From NCBI GenBank assembly GCA_965215005.1, contig CBDCCZ010000044.1, forward strand, positions 32,001 to 96,000: a DNA stretch of 64,000 bases. The letters run 5' to 3'. Within the stretch, counting starts at the first letter, position 1, and the number at the start of each line of letters is the position of its first letter. This DNA comes from Kofleriaceae bacterium. Its GTDB lineage: Bacteria; Myxococcota_A; Polyangia; Haliangiales; Haliangiaceae. Shown piece by piece: positions 30,147-63,645 of the stretch. Under the pieces are notes generated by a model. The model ran no database searches and was not told the origin of the DNA. It saw only the letters and a program-made list of their open reading frames with translations. The position numbers and the translations under genes are program-made.

Positions 30147-30274
30147 TGGTATCGGTCTTCCCGCGGCGGCGCACTCCAGACGCGAGCGGCGATGCATGCT
30201 CAGCAGCGCCGAGCCGTTGCAGCTTGCTTTTTGCTTGCGTCACGTTATCGTGGGCCCGCTCGGACACATAGCTG

Positions 30275-32050
<1,776 letters not shown>

Positions 32051-53827: not shown

Positions 53828-53899
53828 TCGAAAAGTTGCCCCAGCTAGCGAGCGCGGCGTATCACGGTGGGAACGCGACGAACGTCGGCGGAGGTGGCG

Positions 53900-54403
53900 A
53901 TGATGAAACACACCTGCGGAATTTGCAGCGCCAATGTAGCCGAGCTTCGACGCGGACGCTGCTGGACTTGCTACACGCGCTGGGTGGAAGAGCGGCCGGT
54001 GGCGCGGGGAGCAAAGTGCTGCGTGTGCAACGAACGCCGGCGCGACTTCCTCAAGAGCATCGAGCTGCACGGTGCGTGGGCGGCAATGTGCTTCTCCTGC
54101 CACGGCCGCGCCACACGATTGGCGCCGCTGCCCGATACGATCGCAGGGCTGCGCGAGGCTTTGAGCCGCGACCGGCGCGATGACGATCGCCGGTTCGGCA
54201 AGCGCGATACGCGCGTGTTTCAGTACGATCGCCGCAGTGACGACCGCCGCCTCGGCCGCGCGCGCACGATAGATGACGTGCAAGCGATCGACGACGAGAT
54301 GATCGTCGAGATCGATGGCGAGGCAGAGAGCGTTGGGCAGCCCGGCGACGCCGAGGCGGCAAGCTGTGATTGGTCGGAGCTCACTCGCATCCACGAGCCG
54401 TGA
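53900..54403 (+). CDS. Protein with four CxxC pairs and DRR repeats
   Basis: GGAGG RBS; CGIC, CWTC, CVC (within KCCVC), CFSC; RDRRDDDRR...YDRRSDDRR. Confidence 0.75.
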   Translation: MMKHTCGICSANVAELRRGRCWTCYTRWVEERPVARGAKCCVCNERRRDFLKSIELHGAWAAMCFSCHGRATRLAPLPDTIAGLREALSRDRRDDDRRFGKRDTRVFQYDRRSDDRRLGRARTIDDVQAIDDEMIVEIDGEAESVGQPGDAEAASCDWSELTRIHEP

Positions 54404-54828: not shown

Positions 54829-55245
54829 ATGAGTACGCTGGCAGTGGTGGAAGAAATCTTGTGTGAGACCGAAGTGCCCATGTCTGTACGTCAGATCGTC
54901 GAGTACGCCAGCGGGCGTCTGCCGACGAAATCGAAGACGCCAGACACCGTCGTCGCACGCGATCTGTCCATGGACATCAAGAAGAAGGGCGATTCATCCC
55001 TCTTCGTTCGTACTGCGCCGGGGCGCTACACGATGCGCGCGCTCCACGTTCGTACGATAGCCGAGCCCGAGGTGGCAACACGGCATGAGTCGGTCGCCGC
55101 AACGATGGTGCCGCCGAGCATGCCACCGCGGCAGGAGGCGCCGGCGTCGGTGCTGAGCTCGGCAATTCGCAGCGAACGCGCCGGCACGCTCGCCGCGCCG
55201 CGCTCGCCGCACAGCGAGCAGTCTGCGTCGATTCATCAGCATTGA
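54829..55245 (+). CDS. HARE-HTH (winged helix) domain protein
   Basis: GAGGAG RBS; EILCETEVPMSVRQIV...SKTPDTVVARDLSMDIKKKGDSSLFVRTAPGRY. Confidence 0.8.
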   Translation: MSTLAVVEEILCETEVPMSVRQIVEYASGRLPTKSKTPDTVVARDLSMDIKKKGDSSLFVRTAPGRYTMRALHVRTIAEPEVATRHESVAATMVPPSMPPRQEAPASVLSSAIRSERAGTLAAPRSPHSEQSASIHQH

Positions 55246-57822: not shown

Positions 57823-58104
57823 ATGGCGAAGAAGCAGACACGGCGCAGCATCAGCGTGAGCCGGGTTACCTATGAGCGCCTCAAGGGCTACTGCGAGGCT
57901 CAGGGAGTCTCGATGAGCCAGTTTGTTGAGGCGCGCGTTGGCGACTACCTAGGCGAATCGAAGACCGAAGAGCGAACCACGTTGCCGAGGCCTTCGCGTC
58001 CCGAACCGGTGCCGATGGTGTCGGTGCGGCCTCTTGCGCGAGAGCAACAGCCGGAGGTGAAGGCGCCGCGCAAGATCACCGCCGAGCAGATCTTCACGTT
58101 CTGA
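57823..58104 (+). CDS. Ribbon-helix-helix-like DNA-binding protein
   Basis: RRSISVS (strand), TYERLKGYCEAQG and SMSQFVE (helices). Confidence 0.75.
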   Translation: MAKKQTRRSISVSRVTYERLKGYCEAQGVSMSQFVEARVGDYLGESKTEERTTLPRPSRPEPVPMVSVRPLAREQQPEVKAPRKITAEQIFTF

Positions 58105-58471
58105 CCGCGTTGAGCAGGCGAGCTCGTCATCGAGGGGATGGTGGGCTTGCTCGAGTTGTTGACACTGCCAACGGGTTGTTGACGCGCACCTCGTGTCGCC
58201 GGTTTGCGTCGGCGACGCGCTGAGAGTCGCTGCAGCAAAATCTGCGAGACCTCTGCGGCGTTGACTCGCGTGCTGGCTCTGCAAGAGCTGTCGATATCAC
58301 GGGGGGCAGAAGGGGACACCGACGCGGAACGGGCACGTGCAGCACGCCCGCCTCTGTCGCGTGAGCGACGCAACGCGTCGGTGATCTCGGAGGTAACCGC
58401 GGAGGTGGGGGCAATGGCGTCTGTAGCCAGCGCGGGAGGGCTCGAGGCGTTGCTGGACGGTGCGCGCTGGG

Positions 58472-58852
58472 CTAGCGAGTCACCTGGTCGTCGCTGCCCA
58501 AGGCTGGAAACGTCGCGATCACTTCGGTGGTGATGCCCCCGCGTACGAAGAATTTGCCGGTTACCGTCATCCGTCGTGGTTTGGTGGCGGCGACCAAGTC
58601 ATCGAGAATCTGATTGGTGACGGCTTCATGGAAGGCGCCTTCATTGCGGTAGCTCCACAAGTAGAGCTTGAGTGCCTTGAGCTCCACGCACGTCTGTTCG
58701 GGAACGTACTCGATGGCGATGTGAGCAAAGTCAGGTTGGCCGGTGAGCGGGCAGAGACAGGTGAATTCCGGGCAGTCAAAGCGGATTAAGAACCCGCGGC
58801 CCGGCCGAGGATTTGGGAAGGTTTCGAGAGTTTTGCTCGGGGTGCTCGGCAT
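58472..58852 (-). CDS. queF: NADPH-dependent preQ0 reductase (preQ1 synthase)
   Basis: [32 protein letters not shown]. Confidence 0.95.
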
Positions 58853-59367
58853 CGATTGGCTCCGGCCGCGTACATAGCACGACCTCGGGAGTCGCGCCGG
58901 AGCTCGTGAGCGCACGAGAGTCTGCAATTCAGTGAGCACCCGAGCGGTACGGGCGATGGCATAAAGGGCTCTTGCCGGCGCTTCTGGGCGTCACCCGCGC
59001 GTAACGTCTCGGTAAAGACTGCGTGCGGTGACCCCGGTGGCGTGCGCTTGCGGCGCTAGTGAGGAGGGGGCCGAGGCCGTGCCAAGCTACCTCACGGGTG
59101 GGCGTGCAAATGCTGCTACTTTTTGTAGCGCGGCGGGCACGACGCGCATATGCTGGAGGTACGGCTAACCTCACAGGCCGCCGGTATCACCGCGCGAGCT
59201 CCCAATGCGGGGACCGTGGAGGTGACCGGGGACGGGTCAAAGAAAGGGCCCACAACGAAAGCTCAGCCCACGGGAACCGCCTCCGTTGCATACCACGCTG
59301 TACGCGGCGTGATTGAGCGGGCCGAATAGGCTGAGTGCTGGCATGTAGCCAGGGGAGGTGAGAACGC

Positions 59368-59415
59368 ATGAACCAACACAGTCGTGACTTCAACCGAAAG
59401 GAGCTCTTGCTCTAA
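59368..59415 (+). CDS. 15-aa micro-ORF MNQHSRDFNRKELLL
   Basis: GGAGGTGA at 59354-59361, 6 nt before ATG 59368; TAA 59413-59415. Confidence 0.5.
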   Translation: MNQHSRDFNRKELLL

Positions 59416-59447
59416 CGTCCCTTCGGGACATTGAGTAGGAACTGCGG

Positions 59448-59480
59448 GGGCCTCTGGCGATGAGTCAGAGGCCCTTTTTT
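59448..59480 (+). terminator. Rho-independent terminator
   Basis: GGGCCTCTGGC-GATGA-GTCAGAGGCCC 11-bp stem (one G-U pair) followed by TTTTTT. Confidence 0.9.
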
Positions 59481-59691
59481 ATGGTGCTCACGCAGATCGT
59501 TTGAACGCGCTCACGCCGGGCACTGGTGAGATGAGTGCAACGGCGGAGCGCCGAGAACAAGACGCCGCAGGTCAAATGACGCGGGTGCTTTGCGCGATCG
59601 ACGAGCAGTGCCGTGAATCGCCTTGGGTGGGCCAGAGACAGTAGAGCGGTGCAGGTTTGGCAGCGCGGACCTGCTGAGCGACTCGCAGTGG

Positions 59692-62600
59692 TCAAGGCAC
59701 GAGCAGCTGGAGGAATGGGATGCCTTCGGCCCCGCTCGTGATCAGCCCGCCGCCGAGTCGAGCGTAGAGTGCGACGAGGGGAGAGCCTTCGTTGGCGACC
59801 GCCTCCAATGCTGAAAGTACCGCCGCGGTATCGTCTTCGTTGCGTGCGCGGAGCAGCAGTGCACCGGTAGCGACAATGCGGCGCATCGCCTGTCGCTCCG
59901 AGCCACGGAGGCGGGCGCCGAGCTCCGCTGGTGATTGCGTGGCTGCCCAGGCAGCCGCGAGTGCGGGCAACATGGCCGCGCGAACATCGTGCGAGGGGTC
60001 ATCGACGAGCGGCTCGAGGAGCGCGACCGCAGCGGCAGGATGGTGCTCGAGTAGGCCAACTGTCGACGCGGCGGCGCGAGCGCGACGCTCTTCGGAGCGC
60101 GAGGCGAGCGCTTCTGCCAACACGGCGCTCACCGCTTCTGGCTCGCCGACCCGCGCCATGGTCGTCATTGCGGTGGTGCTGATGCCTGGATCGGCATCGC
60201 GCATCGCGAGCGTGAGCGCCCGGTCGCGCTCCGCCGGCTCGAGCTCGCGTGCATCACCGAGACGAGCCAGCGCTTGCCGTCGCACCGCCGGATCGACATC
60301 GCTGAGGGCCGCTTGAACTGCGTTGCTGGTGCCGATTCCTGCGGCCAAGGCTGCATCGATAGCGGCGATTCGCACCCGCGGCGACGCATCGGTGACGGCC
60401 ATATCGATCAGCGCGGTGCTCTCGATAGCCTGTGCGGTAGAGATCAGAACCAGTTTCTCGGCCTCATCGGCGCGATCGAAGGCGGCGACGAGCACTTTCT
60501 TGGCTGCGGCGGGAGCCGATGGACCCACTCCGGCGAGCGCCCGAGTGGCGATCAGACGAACGGCGCGATCATCGTCGCGCGCGAGGTTGATGGTGGTCTC
60601 GATAATCTGGTCCGTCGGCTTTCCGTCGCCGCCGAGGTGGCTAGCCAGCACCCGTGCTGCTTCGGCGCGAATGTCCACGTCCACGTCTTGACTGAGGCGA
60701 GTGGCCACCGCGATCGCCGCGTCGGCTTCGCCAGGATGGTCCGCGACGCATTCGATGATCCGCTGTCGCACCTGATTGAACTTGCTCGATGTCGCCGCCA
60801 CCAGCTCGCGGATCGACGGCGAGTGGTTCGCGACTAGACCGCGACATAGTCCTGCGACAGCCGCTTCTTGCAGATCGTCGTCGTCCTCGCGAGCGGCCGA
60901 ACGAAGATAGCTAAACACCGGCGCCGGACTGGTCCGGGCGATTTCCGCGAATGCTTCCGTGGCATAACGCTTGGGCCGGCCGTCGCGCTTCCAGAGCTGG
61001 CGGATCCCGCCGATTGCAGCGCCGACGTTGCCACCGGCTTCGATGCTGTTTGCGAGCCCATACGCCGCGCCAACCGCTACATCGAGGCGCTCGGTTTTGA
61101 TCATTTTATTGAGCTCGTTTTGCGAGCCTCGCCCGGTGTGTCCATAGGCGCGTGCCGCCGCGGCGCGCACTGCAGGAGTATCATCTTTGAGAAGTGCTTC
61201 GAGCGCCGGCCGGGCAGCGCGATCCTTGCGCTGAGCGATCTCACCCCACGCTAGTGCGATGGCTTCGCGCAGCTCGGGACTCAGCTGACCTTGTAGCAAC
61301 ACGATCTGCTCCGCAGCTTTCTGCGGCGCGAGCCGCGCATACAGCGGCAGTGCCGCCGCGCGAACCGCCTCGACTTTGGCTTTCCATGCACGGCTTATCG
61401 AACGAGTGAATTGCTTTGCGAGCGCGCCTACCAGCTCCGTTGAGAGGTTCTCGTACAGCATGCGCAGCGCCGCAACTCGGTCTTCGGTAGCCGCCGTTGC
61501 GGTTTCGGCTAAGGTCGCGGCGGCGACGCTCGCGGCTTGCGGATCTGTTGCGAACGCCCGTCTCAGCAGCGCGTGAGCTTTTTGTCGCGTAGGGGCTGCG
61601 ACGTCTTCGTTGCCAAGCACCGAAACCGCCGATTCGGCGGACGGGGCGGCTTCATCGGTGTCCGCGGCAACGATGGCCAAGAGCTCGCGACGGGCTGCTG
61701 GATTGGGATCCGTTGCCAATGCATCGCGATAGAGCTGCCGCGCGAGGTCTTCTTGCAACCCTCGCACGGCGGAAAACGCGATGCGACGCAGCTCGTTATC
61801 GGTAGACGTGAGAGCCTCTGCGAGGGTGTCGTGATACGCATCTCCACGGCGCCGAGCGGATGACGCGGCGACTCGCAATGCTGCGGCTTGGACTGCAGGA
61901 GAGGCGTCACTCAACGCAGCTTCGACCAGCTCCACCTCTTCGGGGCCGCCGCGGGCGAGCGGCTCGAGTCGCTCGAGTAGCGTGATCATGTCGCCGGGGC
62001 CTTGCACCATTTTACGCAGCCCCGCGATTTCGGTGGGAGCACCGGTGATCGCGTAGGCGATGAGGCCTGCCAACTCATCATCGAGTGCCGCCAACGCAAT
62101 AGCGGCGTAGCCCTCCGCTCGGTCTCCATTGAGGTCGTGCGATGCCACCGCTCGCCACACGTCGGCTTCGACCATGGGATGGGTAAAGCCGGTGTCGGCG
62201 ATCATCGAGCCAAAGGAGGGACTCGCTGGTAGCCAGTGAAACACCGATAAAGCCGGCTTTCCAGCCCGAACTACGAGCCGCTGATCGGCTGCTGGCCCCG
62301 CAACATCAAGATAGAAGCTCCTTGCGAGGACGATGTACACCACCACCAACGAAATGAGCGGGACGGCGACGGCGACGGCGGCAATGATGGTGAAGAAGCG
62401 CCGCGTGCGCTCGATGACCGTCCGCTCTTCCGGCGTGGAGGGGGCGATGTTTTCGCGGCGTAGCGCCCACCACTCGCGCAGCGATAGCCGCGAGCTTTCG
62501 GCCGCTTTGGAACCGAGCAGCTCGAACGCGCGGCGCGCTGCGACCCGCGCCGGCGCCGCGATCTCGCGAACGCGCGGGATCAGGATCTCATGGCTCAACG

Positions 62601-63645
62601 CATAGTGGGTTTGTGAGTCGTCACTGGTGCCAGTCACTGGGACGACGAGCCCCTTGTCGGCGAACACCTCGAAGGCGCGCCGTGCAAACGCTGGATCGAT
62701 GCTTACTCGGCTCGCTGCCCATTCGGGGGCGTAGGCCACTGGCGCCGGATGCGACGCGAGCTCGGCGATGAGTCGCAGCGCGGTGCGTTCACTGCCGGTT
62801 GCGGCAGCCGCACCGGTGATCCACGCGCGGACGAGCTCGAGCGCTCCGCCGATCGCTTCAAGGCCTGCCAGCGTGGTGATCTGCAGCTCGCGGAGCGCCA
62901 TTGCGCTCATCTGGACGTCTGCAGGAAGAACGCCGCGAGCGCCCTGGTCGAGCTCTCGAGCGACCACGGTGGCAAGCTTTGGATCCGCGGCTATCAGCGC
63001 GACTGCTAACGTTCGCTCTAGCACCGAGGAGGCGGTGGCAAGGTCGAAGCGCTGCAGCTCGTACCGGGCGGGTGGGGGAAATAGCGAACCGGTGCGACGT
63101 TCGAGAGCTCCGAAGAGATGCACGCGCTCACTAGCGCAGCTGAACAGGAAGCGGGCGCGACCGCCGGAGCGCGTGACGACGCGGGCGAATAAATCGCCAA
63201 TCTCGCCGATCACCGGATCGTCGCCGCGCGCGAACACCACATCGACTTCATCGAGGATGAACACGTAGAGCTGGCCCGGCAGCGCTTGCCCGACCACGCG
63301 CGCCAGAAATGTCATCGGGTGCTCACCAGGATCGGGCGCCAGGCCAGTGGCTGTCGCAAGGGCGTGGGTGAAGGAATCGATGGGGCGAGTAACGTCTTCG
63401 CAGAACAGCGCCATGACGCCGTGGTCGCGCAGATGCGGTACCAAGCCCGCGCGTAGTAGCGACGTCTTGCCGACGCCGGGCTCACCATAAAGGAGACCCG
63501 CTCGGAAGCCATCGCCCGTTACAAGCTCGGCGAGCTGATCGCGCTCGCGATCGCGACCGAGGAGCACGTCTCGCTCGGACTCGACAAAGGCGCTCAGCCC
63601 GCGGAGCGGAGTCACCGTCCCCGGATAGGTCGCGACTGCCGGCAC
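59692..63645 (-). CDS. P-loop (STAND-like) ATPase - TM - HEAT repeat protein
   Basis: LLGRDRE, GEPGVGKTS, FILDEVD; TM FFTIIAAVAVAVPLISLVVVYIVLA; many LxDxxxxVRxxA repeats. Confidence 0.85.
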   Translation of the reverse strand: MPAVATYPGTVTPLRGLSAFVESERDVLLGRDRERDQLAELVTGDGFRAGLLYGEPGVGKTSLLRAGLVPHLRDHGVMALFCEDVTRPIDSFTHALATATGLAPDPGEHPMTFLARVVGQALPGQLYVFILDEVDVVFARGDDPVIGEIGDLFARVVTRSGGRARFLFSCASERVHLFGALERRTGSLFPPPARYELQRFDLATASSVLERTLAVALIAADPKLATVVARELDQGARGVLPADVQMSAMALRELQITTLAGLEAIGGALELVRAWITGAAAATGSERTALRLIAELASHPAPVAYAPEWAASRVSIDPAFARRAFEVFADKGLVVPVTGTSDDSQTHYALSHEILIPRVREIAAPARVAARRAFELLGSKAAESSRLSLREWWALRRENIAPSTPEERTVIERTRRFFTIIAAVAVAVPLISLVVVYIVLARSFYLDVAGPAADQRLVVRAGKPALSVFHWLPASPSFGSMIADTGFTHPMVEADVWRAVASHDLNGDRAEGYAAIALAALDDELAGLIAYAITGAPTEIAGLRKMVQGPGDMITLLERLEPLARGGPEEVELVEAALSDASPAVQAAALRVAASSARRRGDAYHDTLAEALTSTDNELRRIAFSAVRGLQEDLARQLYRDALATDPNPAARRELLAIVAADTDEAAPSAESAVSVLGNEDVAAPTRQKAHALLRRAFATDPQAASVAAATLAETATAATEDRVAALRMLYENLSTELVGALAKQFTRSISRAWKAKVEAVRAAALPLYARLAPQKAAEQIVLLQGQLSPELREAIALAWGEIAQRKDRAARPALEALLKDDTPAVRAAAARAYGHTGRGSQNELNKMIKTERLDVAVGAAYGLANSIEAGGNVGAAIGGIRQLWKRDGRPKRYATEAFAEIARTSPAPVFSYLRSAAREDDDDLQEAAVAGLCRGLVANHSPSIRELVAATSSKFNQVRQRIIECVADHPGEADAAIAVATRLSQDVDVDIRAEAARVLASHLGGDGKPTDQIIETTINLARDDDRAVRLIATRALAGVGPSAPAAAKKVLVAAFDRADEAEKLVLISTAQAIESTALIDMAVTDASPRVRIAAIDAALAAGIGTSNAVQAALSDVDPAVRRQALARLGDARELEPAERDRALTLAMRDADPGISTTAMTTMARVGEPEAVSAVLAEALASRSEERRARAAASTVGLLEHHPAAAVALLEPLVDDPSHDVRAAMLPALAAAWAATQSPAELGARLRGSERQAMRRIVATGALLLRARNEDDTAAVLSALEAVANEGSPLVALYARLGGGLITSGAEGIPFLQLLVP

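Follow-up and report, generated by a model that had tools for sequence, protein, structure and literature searches.

The 64,000-nt stretch of Kofleriaceae DNA analysed here (the window) carries, between two minus-strand genes, a structured RNA that is predicted from sequence signals and folding to be a stand-alone plus-strand transcript of about 320 nt (59161-59480). From 5' to 3', the locus is laid out as a sigma70-type promoter, hairpins P1-P3, a P4/P5-P6 core, a Shine-Dalgarno (SD) sequence, a 15-codon ORF, a hairpin enclosing the stop codon, and an intrinsic terminator. A preliminary description of this DNA had proposed a stand-alone structured RNA of an undescribed kind, and this proposal holds: the locus has no Rfam hit, the genome has a separate 6S RNA, homologues exist, and helices covary. 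The promoter, the SD, the 15-codon ORF, and a second SD-like motif are elements that it did not contain. We regard the RNA as real and the family as apparently undescribed, since it is absent from Rfam, although supplementary motif lists of RNA-discovery papers could hold it; a literature search that left such lists and most subscription papers outside its scope found no description of the RNA. We propose, with about an even chance of being right, that this is a translated structural RNA: a ribosome would unwind the 3' hairpin and linger SD-clamped at the stop codon, and being translated, not the peptide, would be the function.

Locus, neighbours and distribution

Both flanking genes lie on the minus strand, as previously described, and outside the RNA. 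The divergent neighbour is queF (58472-58852; Pfam match to QueF, PF14489), while the convergent neighbour is an nSTAND1/HEAT gene (59692-63645; Pfam match), whose 1317-aa product is an NTPase with HEAT repeats and a hydrophobic segment near residue 420. The nSTAND1/HEAT gene is kept beside queF across the family. queF adjoins the RNA in 57/65 family homologues and is upstream and divergent in 50/65; the RNA itself is directed into queF in 7/65, and queF is missing from 25 of 26 distant loci. Downstream genes vary. By tblastn, from which their identity and direction were taken, convergent STAND or RHH genes follow the RNA in 20/36 long family loci; among the same 36, an RHH gene was downstream and convergent in 14 and a STAND gene in 8.

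Several other features were observed around the RNA and elsewhere in the window. The queF-RNA block is flipped between the RHH and STAND/HEAT genes (window 57823-63645 and family loci, for example L042, L057, L086, and L089). A second conserved synteny was seen in families f18 and f21, where the RNA sits after one shared co-oriented upstream gene, whose product starts LGCHGGETPKH and looks metallo-hydrolase-like by eye (L069/L262, L275, L280, L282, L284, L285, and L287). The sole Rfam match in the window at gathering score is a TPP riboswitch (30269-30375, +; 72.5 bits). Also on the plus strand are genes for a stand-alone HARE-HTH protein (54829-55245) and a Cys-rich protein without a Pfam match (53867-54403).

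Homologues proved abundant. A DNA search gave matches in 16 of 61 genomes, including its own, with 13 family relatives carrying true homologues. Model R1, which stops just past the AUG, found the RNA in 125/138 genomes of the family, taken as Kofleriaceae (70/73 of those of good quality and 16/17 genera, with two unpublished genomes, G084 and G085, in the tally); high-scoring records include Kofleriaceae and Haliangium. Strong matches occurred once per genome, making the RNA essentially single-copy, save in G007, where two equal-score copies (C6:75567-75690 and C9:75723-75846) are possibly an assembly duplication (7% contamination). Models R2 and R3 detected the RNA in 4/5 genomes from other families of the order. 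A sample of the class yielded 36 positives among 151 genomes (f18 6/6, f61 3/3, f66 3/4, f58 2/2, f10 3/8, and single genomes in f3, f11, f17, and f21), and in another class f48 gave 4/28 and other families 0/85. In all, the models place the RNA in about ten families beyond Kofleriaceae. It was not found in f14 (0/18), f5 (0/18), f12 (0/17), f13 (0/10), or f16 (0/11), nor in 10 single genomes by a looser search that had no positive control. Viral contigs gave no match to the family pattern; a looser pattern gave 121 matches, of which 80 were scored and none exceeded 24 bits.

Comparisons below draw on 94 non-redundant homologues. Of these, 29 are distant and 65 belong to the family, all of the latter being among the 125. 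Exact duplicates, the unparsed L231, and the false positives L070-L072, L092, L094-L097, L288, and L292 were left out. Retention of this single-copy RNA extends over the whole family and into several further lineages of Myxococcota, predators that are abundant in soil.

Transcription signals and fold

Aligned with the family promoter, we identified a predicted sigma70-type promoter on the plus strand (59126-59154) with a -35 element TAGCGC (59126-31), a 17-nt spacer, and a -10 element TATGCT (59149-54). The pattern TKGNNN-17/18-TANNNT occurs 130-300 nt before the AUG in 71/94 homologues, with 7 expected from shuffles; the window's own promoter departs from it at -35 and is not matched by it. 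The family -35 consensus is cTGGCr, compared with TTGACN in the 6S promoters of five relatives, and this element may be the mark of a regulated promoter class. The RNase P promoter of the source genome, G000, looks similar (TGGTCA...TACAGT). At the other end, a 13-pair intrinsic terminator (59448-59480, +) was located in a search for terminator-like sites. It is the longest of six such sites in 57-62 kb, in agreement with its earlier designation as the clearest terminator and its plus-strand orientation, and it is present in 83/94 homologues. These conserved signals suggest transcription from the RNA's own promoter to its own terminator.

The region preceding the terminator had been called densely paired. 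Its predicted fold (59170-59485; -134.4 kcal/mol) has z = -3.1, and 0 of 100 shuffles were as stable. Since the reverse complement folds equally well (z = -3.3), folding energy cannot give the strand; the plus strand is indicated instead by the asymmetry of G-U over A-C cells in the covarying helices (62 versus 10), together with the promoter, SD, ORF, and U-run. The helices listed in the preliminary description were all located where it had placed them. Two of its hairpins belong to variable parts of the RNA: CACGCTG-TACG-CGGCGTG is present as described, and the UUCG hairpin is present but is drawn by ViennaRNA as a 5-bp stem with a UUC loop.

P1 (59161-59180) is a 5' hairpin that begins at the predicted transcription start, placed at ~59161 from the -10 spacing, and a short starting hairpin recurs in the folds of most homologues shown. 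It is followed by P2 (59181-59229), a long irregular hairpin that was the first helix of the preliminary description, and by the P3 hairpin (59234-59251), both drawn from folds. The four basal pairs of P2 are paired in 91% of cells with a two-sided change in one, and covariation for the P2 base and P3 is weak (2/8 pairs); RNAalifold yielded no consensus fold for the 5' third. Many homologues have a hairpin loop of the RAUG(G/U)U type in their 5' domain (here the P2 loop at ~59203-59209; also L275, L279, L283, and L286), and in some distant ones this loop could pair with CCA in the linker.

The core of the RNA is better defined by the alignment. A single-stranded linker (59252-59260) ends in a conserved GAA (59257-59), with G, A, and A present in 43, 44, and 45 of 46 sequences, respectively. 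P4 (59261-68/59329-36) then encloses P5 and a variable apical hairpin (59261-59336 overall). P5, formed by GGGAACCGC (59272-80) and GCGGGCC (59317-23), is nearly invariant within the family and remodelled in distant homologues. The P6 hairpin (59338-59352), immediately 5' of the SD, has a conserved stem sequence and a free loop, is paired in 99% of cells, and changes from U-A to C-G in 15/41. In the covariation analysis, we observed two-sided changes in 9/9 pairs of P4 and 2/5 pairs of P6, and 0 of 500 shuffles scored as high (46 sequences). A longer protein across the 5' domain was considered and rejected: the P5 span takes all three values modulo 3, and any given frame is open in at most 28 of the 65 family homologues.

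Membership of a known family, such as 6S RNA, would have removed the claim to novelty, and none was detected. With Rfam 15, the locus gave nothing at gathering score and a best E of 1.1 in an E-value scan, and 20 homologue loci gave two chance matches (E >= 0.14). 6S RNA is one long rod with a 5'-3' closing stem and a central bubble; folds and covariation of the present RNA give serial hairpins and no conserved 5'-3' stem. The genome's 6S gene (ssrS) is elsewhere, at C4:61543-61667, where the Rfam family search missed it and blastn with relatives' 6S found it; it is 78-85% identical to those sequences and has the same neighbours. ARAGORN found no tRNA-like domain or tmRNA in the window, and the genome's real tmRNA, with the tag ANDNAVALAA, is elsewhere. 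A preQ1 riboswitch or queF leader, which would sit in the 5' UTR of queuosine genes and share their strand, was likewise rejected, given the divergence from queF noted above and the absence of an Rfam hit.

The short reading frame and two SD-like sequences

The initiation SD, GGGGAGGUGA (59352-59361, +; core GGAGG at 59354-58), precedes the 15-codon ORF, MNQHSRDFNRKELLL followed by a stop codon (59368-59415, +; ATG at 59368, TAA at 59413-15). All 94 homologues keep an ORF of 12-19 codons with an SD and an ATG or GTG start (ATG in 92), and the distance from GGAG to the start codon is 6-13 nt in 94/94, although the SD had been built into both the search models and the parsing. ORF length changes in-frame, and one copy is six codons longer. 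The SD matches a general 16S tail sequence over 8 perfect nucleotides, and a search of the assembly did not recover the 16S 3' end of this genome; the spacer from SD to start is not conserved.

Because later search models included the ORF, we also ran an ORF-blind test, searching metagenomes for the 5' structure and SD (linker, P6, and SD), which returned at least 120 loci. Among the matches listed, in all 15 with a perfect 7-bp P4 the SD was followed, at 8-11 nt, by a start codon and an ORF of 13-21 codons. Also among the matches listed, such a start and ORF were found in 8/16 with six P4 pairs and in 18/89 with fewer.

We estimated omega from 43 thirteen-codon ORFs on a tree from the non-coding part, with the parameter order checked through a QueF control alone. 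The likelihood for the whole ORF is highest at 0.7-1.0 and has dropped by 13 log units at 0.35; the QueF control (a 19-codon core) peaks at 0.02-0.05. Codons 2-8 alone peak at 0.5-0.7, with 1.0 just 1.5 log units lower, leaving room for weak selection on the peptide. On these estimates, the peptide evolves near-neutrally and appears free to drift. The peptides are rich in S, R, E, T, G, and K, with variable C-termini that mostly end in Ser, and across the 94 homologues no tmRNA-type ALAA-like degron was seen. Ser is the commonest residue (17%). Type I toxins are hydrophobic membrane peptides, and a type I toxin mRNA was rejected on this hydrophilic composition. The earlier suggestion of a dual-function RNA calls for refinement: the ORF is conserved and its peptide is not, and the comparison showed no conserved seed for action in trans.

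The stop codons of the family are TAG (35) or TAA (30) and never TGA, which makes up 53% of stops in the genome. A dependence on RF1 alone was considered and rejected, because 6/29 distant homologues end in TGA.

The ORF contains a second SD-like motif. In the window this is AAGGAG (59398-59403, +), with GGAG at 59400-03, 9 nt before the stop codon; across homologues, the spacing between GGAG(G) and the stop is fixed at 9 or 12 nt. In 82/94 homologues, at least 4/5 positions agree with GGAGG when it is placed to start at -13 or -16 relative to the stop, compared with 7.7% of 3811 long ORFs of the genome. This figure is inflated by allowing two offsets and, for the 29 distant homologues, by their discovery through ORF-containing models, and kin are not independent. 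The motif is weak in 12/94 and missing in 3. Its distance from the AUG ranges over 23-44 nt, while its offset from the stop is 13 or 16 only; the motif is anchored to the stop codon, not to the AUG.

At the peptide level, the motif coincides with the sole conserved residue, a Glu four or five codons before the stop. Counted at codons -6..-3, this Glu is encoded by GAG in 88 homologues and GAA in 2, compared with 0 GAG and 16 GAA for Glu upstream, and the codon before it mostly ends in G. The GGAGG columns carry 1.0-1.7 bits, compared with 0.05-0.6 in the P7 columns on either side, which are paired to the same degree. Pairs within P7 would be free to covary and a 16S rRNA partner would not, so this conservation would fit a partner that is unable to covary. 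From these comparisons, we read selection as acting on the nucleotide letters, not on the peptide.

The 3' part of the ORF is predicted to pair with the post-stop strand (TCTTGCTC/GAGTAGGA) in P7 (59405-59440, +), the last helix of the preliminary description, which encloses the stop codon. The P7 domain has a mean z of -2.45 in 83 homologues. When ORFs were swapped between homologues, partner specificity was slight in the family (8.7 pairs for own versus 7.7 for swapped ORFs; 41/59) and strong in distant homologues (18.7 versus 7.7; 24/24). In the 83 homologues, nucleotides 1-19 of the ORF have an unpaired probability of 0.55-0.94 and nucleotides 20-33 of 0.18-0.48; the first 16-19 nt are predicted to be unpaired. 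When the 5' domain is folded along with the ORF, the initiation SD is predicted to be mostly paired (unpaired 0.29), and it is able to pair with a post-stop CCUCC (mean 0.40, median 0.07). Due to this pairing in longer folds, an open landing pad should be regarded as uncertain.

Possible functions and relation to known systems

The reading we prefer, a translated structural RNA, would proceed in steps. After transcription between its own signals, the P3-linker-P4/P5-P6 domain, in which P4 and P6 are defined by covariation, would abut the ribosome-binding site and might serve as a docking platform for the 30S subunit or a protein. A ribosome would load on the conserved strong SD and the open 16-19-nt landing pad, translate 12-19 codons, and have to unwind the predicted, partner-specific P7. 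How much SD-like pauses matter in vivo is a subject of dispute. At the stop codon, the second GGAG(G) would be placed to pair with the 16S anti-SD, and in vitro such pairing slows mRNA and tRNA release until the subunits split (Chen et al., PMC5737721); the ribosome would therefore dwell on the RNA with P7 open. In the least supported step, the difference between an occupied, open state and a free, closed state could be the output, which would report or buffer ribosome supply or recycling and set the fate of the RNA or the binding of a partner.

A bolder version, which we hold only tentatively, casts the RNA as a ribosome test track. It would be a housekeeping-like class with two SDs about one ribosome apart, on which an initiating and a post-termination ribosome could be held at once, or a terminated ribosome handed back to its own start. 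With P4-P6 docked on the 30S platform, such an RNA might serve as a ribosome store or as a reporter of release and recycling activity; it would have no cis target, and its peptide would be disposable.

A translation-gated, trans-acting sRNA is an unlikely alternative. The ribosome would open P7 and free the C-rich post-stop strand (CCUCC, an anti-SD), or a processed piece of it, for pairing with mRNA ribosome-binding sites. CCTCC follows the stop in 40/94 homologues, with 35/65 in the family (within 20 nt), and the RNA has its own predicted promoter and terminator. Action in trans is known for RNAs that derive from attenuators, as described for rnTrpL (PMC6614838), and M. xanthus, which lacks Hfq, is reported to have SD-targeting sRNAs (10.1101/2025.09.11.675593). 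However, CCTCC occurs in just 5/29 distant homologues and its presence is accounted for by its complementarity to GGAGG, the post-stop strand varies in sequence and length (11-120 nt), and this strand would occupy the mRNA channel while a ribosome stands at the stop.

Rather unlikely, in our judgement, is a small-protein gene with a structured 5' UTR, whose 12-19-residue hydrophilic peptide would be a change-tolerant product, as proposed for RreB or SpfP, or would act in cis at termination. Frame, start, and stop are strictly kept, a loose S-x-E-G/V/A-x-S pattern recurs, the last codon is Ser in 42/94 homologues through both TCN (33) and AGY (9), and the omega peak of codons 2-8 leans the same way. 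The near-neutral omega of the whole ORF argues against it, as does the one conserved residue, which is fixed at the codon level and swapped for Gly (GGG/GGA) in some homologues; the other codon biases (NGT, NGC, and GCUC) are consistent with RNA pairing.

Short ORFs for which translation outweighs the product are known as cis leaders of operons, and the present RNA looks like an attenuator leader without an operon. A ribosome-dependent attenuator or riboswitch that controls downstream read-through or regulates queF would account for the short ORF, the stop codon in a hairpin, and the terminator, as well as for the adjacency of queF in the family, and work cited in PMC5737721 reports that the leader peptides of attenuation systems have SD-like sequences close to their stops. 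We nevertheless consider a cis-acting leader very improbable. No antiterminator was detected (4.7 pairs versus 5.3 in shuffles, n = 80), no regulatory codon run is conserved in the 94 homologues, and no conserved co-oriented downstream operon was found, the neighbours being variable and often convergent; queF is mostly on the opposite strand and absent from nearly all distant loci. Queuosine sensing through NAY codons was also rejected, as Q-decoded NAY codons make up 12.2% and are not enriched.

We give still less credence to an initiation-complex trap, in which a 30S or 70S ribosome would bind the SD and AUG and seldom elongate into P7, sequestering subunits. A strong SD followed by an open pad roughly one footprint long and then a stable hairpin would suit it, and rreB shows tight 30S binding together with weak translation (PMC5711450), but the SD here is 8-10 nt rather than 17, and a trap leaves the in-frame stop (94/94) and the stop-anchored second motif unexplained. 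A divergent copy of a known housekeeping RNA, for which single-copy, near-universal occurrence and the missed Rfam 6S might speak, has a negligible chance, because the true ssrS lies on contig C4, all 13 homologue-bearing relatives have a separate 6S on another contig, and the genome's own tmRNA, SRP, and RNase P genes are on other contigs.

Among known systems, attenuator leaders (trpL; rnTrpL, PMC6614838) share an ORF of about 14 codons, an ORF 3' part in a hairpin before the terminator, and an SD-like sequence near the stop. Unlike them, the present RNA has no regulatory codon run, antiterminator, or downstream operon, and carries an extra structured 5' domain of ~200 nt. In tmRNA, the stop codon lies in a hairpin loop. 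The mRNA-like domain of tmRNA (PMC3985003) is alike in placing a short frame inside a structured RNA, with reading by the ribosome as part of the function. The present RNA differs in starting by SD and AUG and in having no tRNA-like domain or ALAA degron. AzuCR is reportedly a dual-function sRNA, whose small transcript carries about 15 codons as an ORF. Spot 42/SpfP (PMC12612679) resembles our RNA as a small dual-function transcript with a ~15-codon ORF whose translation may compete with structure or pairing. In the homologues of the present RNA, no conserved seed or peptide was seen.

The closest kind is the ribosome-engaged small mRNAs rreB and rreR of alphaproteobacteria. They too are family-conserved, stand-alone small transcripts with their own promoter and terminator, here predicted from sequence, and they have an ORF of 14-18 codons (12-19 in the present RNA) and an unusual ribosome-binding arrangement. 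rreB is described as a 165-nt RNA that encodes a conserved peptide and has a 16-17-nt SD extending up to a GTG start, and rreB/rreR as co-sedimenting with 30S and showing start-codon-dependent decay (PMC5711450). The RNA described here does without that SD, GTG start, and conserved peptide. It has instead ~300 nt, a covarying 5' domain, an ordinary strong SD with a mostly ATG start, a peptide that evolves near-neutrally, and, ahead of the stop, a second SD-like motif. We give it a fair chance of being a new class. If the proposed function is true, a free-standing gene with an SD fixed before its stop would put termination and recycling to a new use, and would offer a natural system for testing the in vivo function of SD-clamped post-termination ribosomes. 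It would also be a caution for small-protein surveys, in that a strictly conserved frame need not imply a functional peptide.
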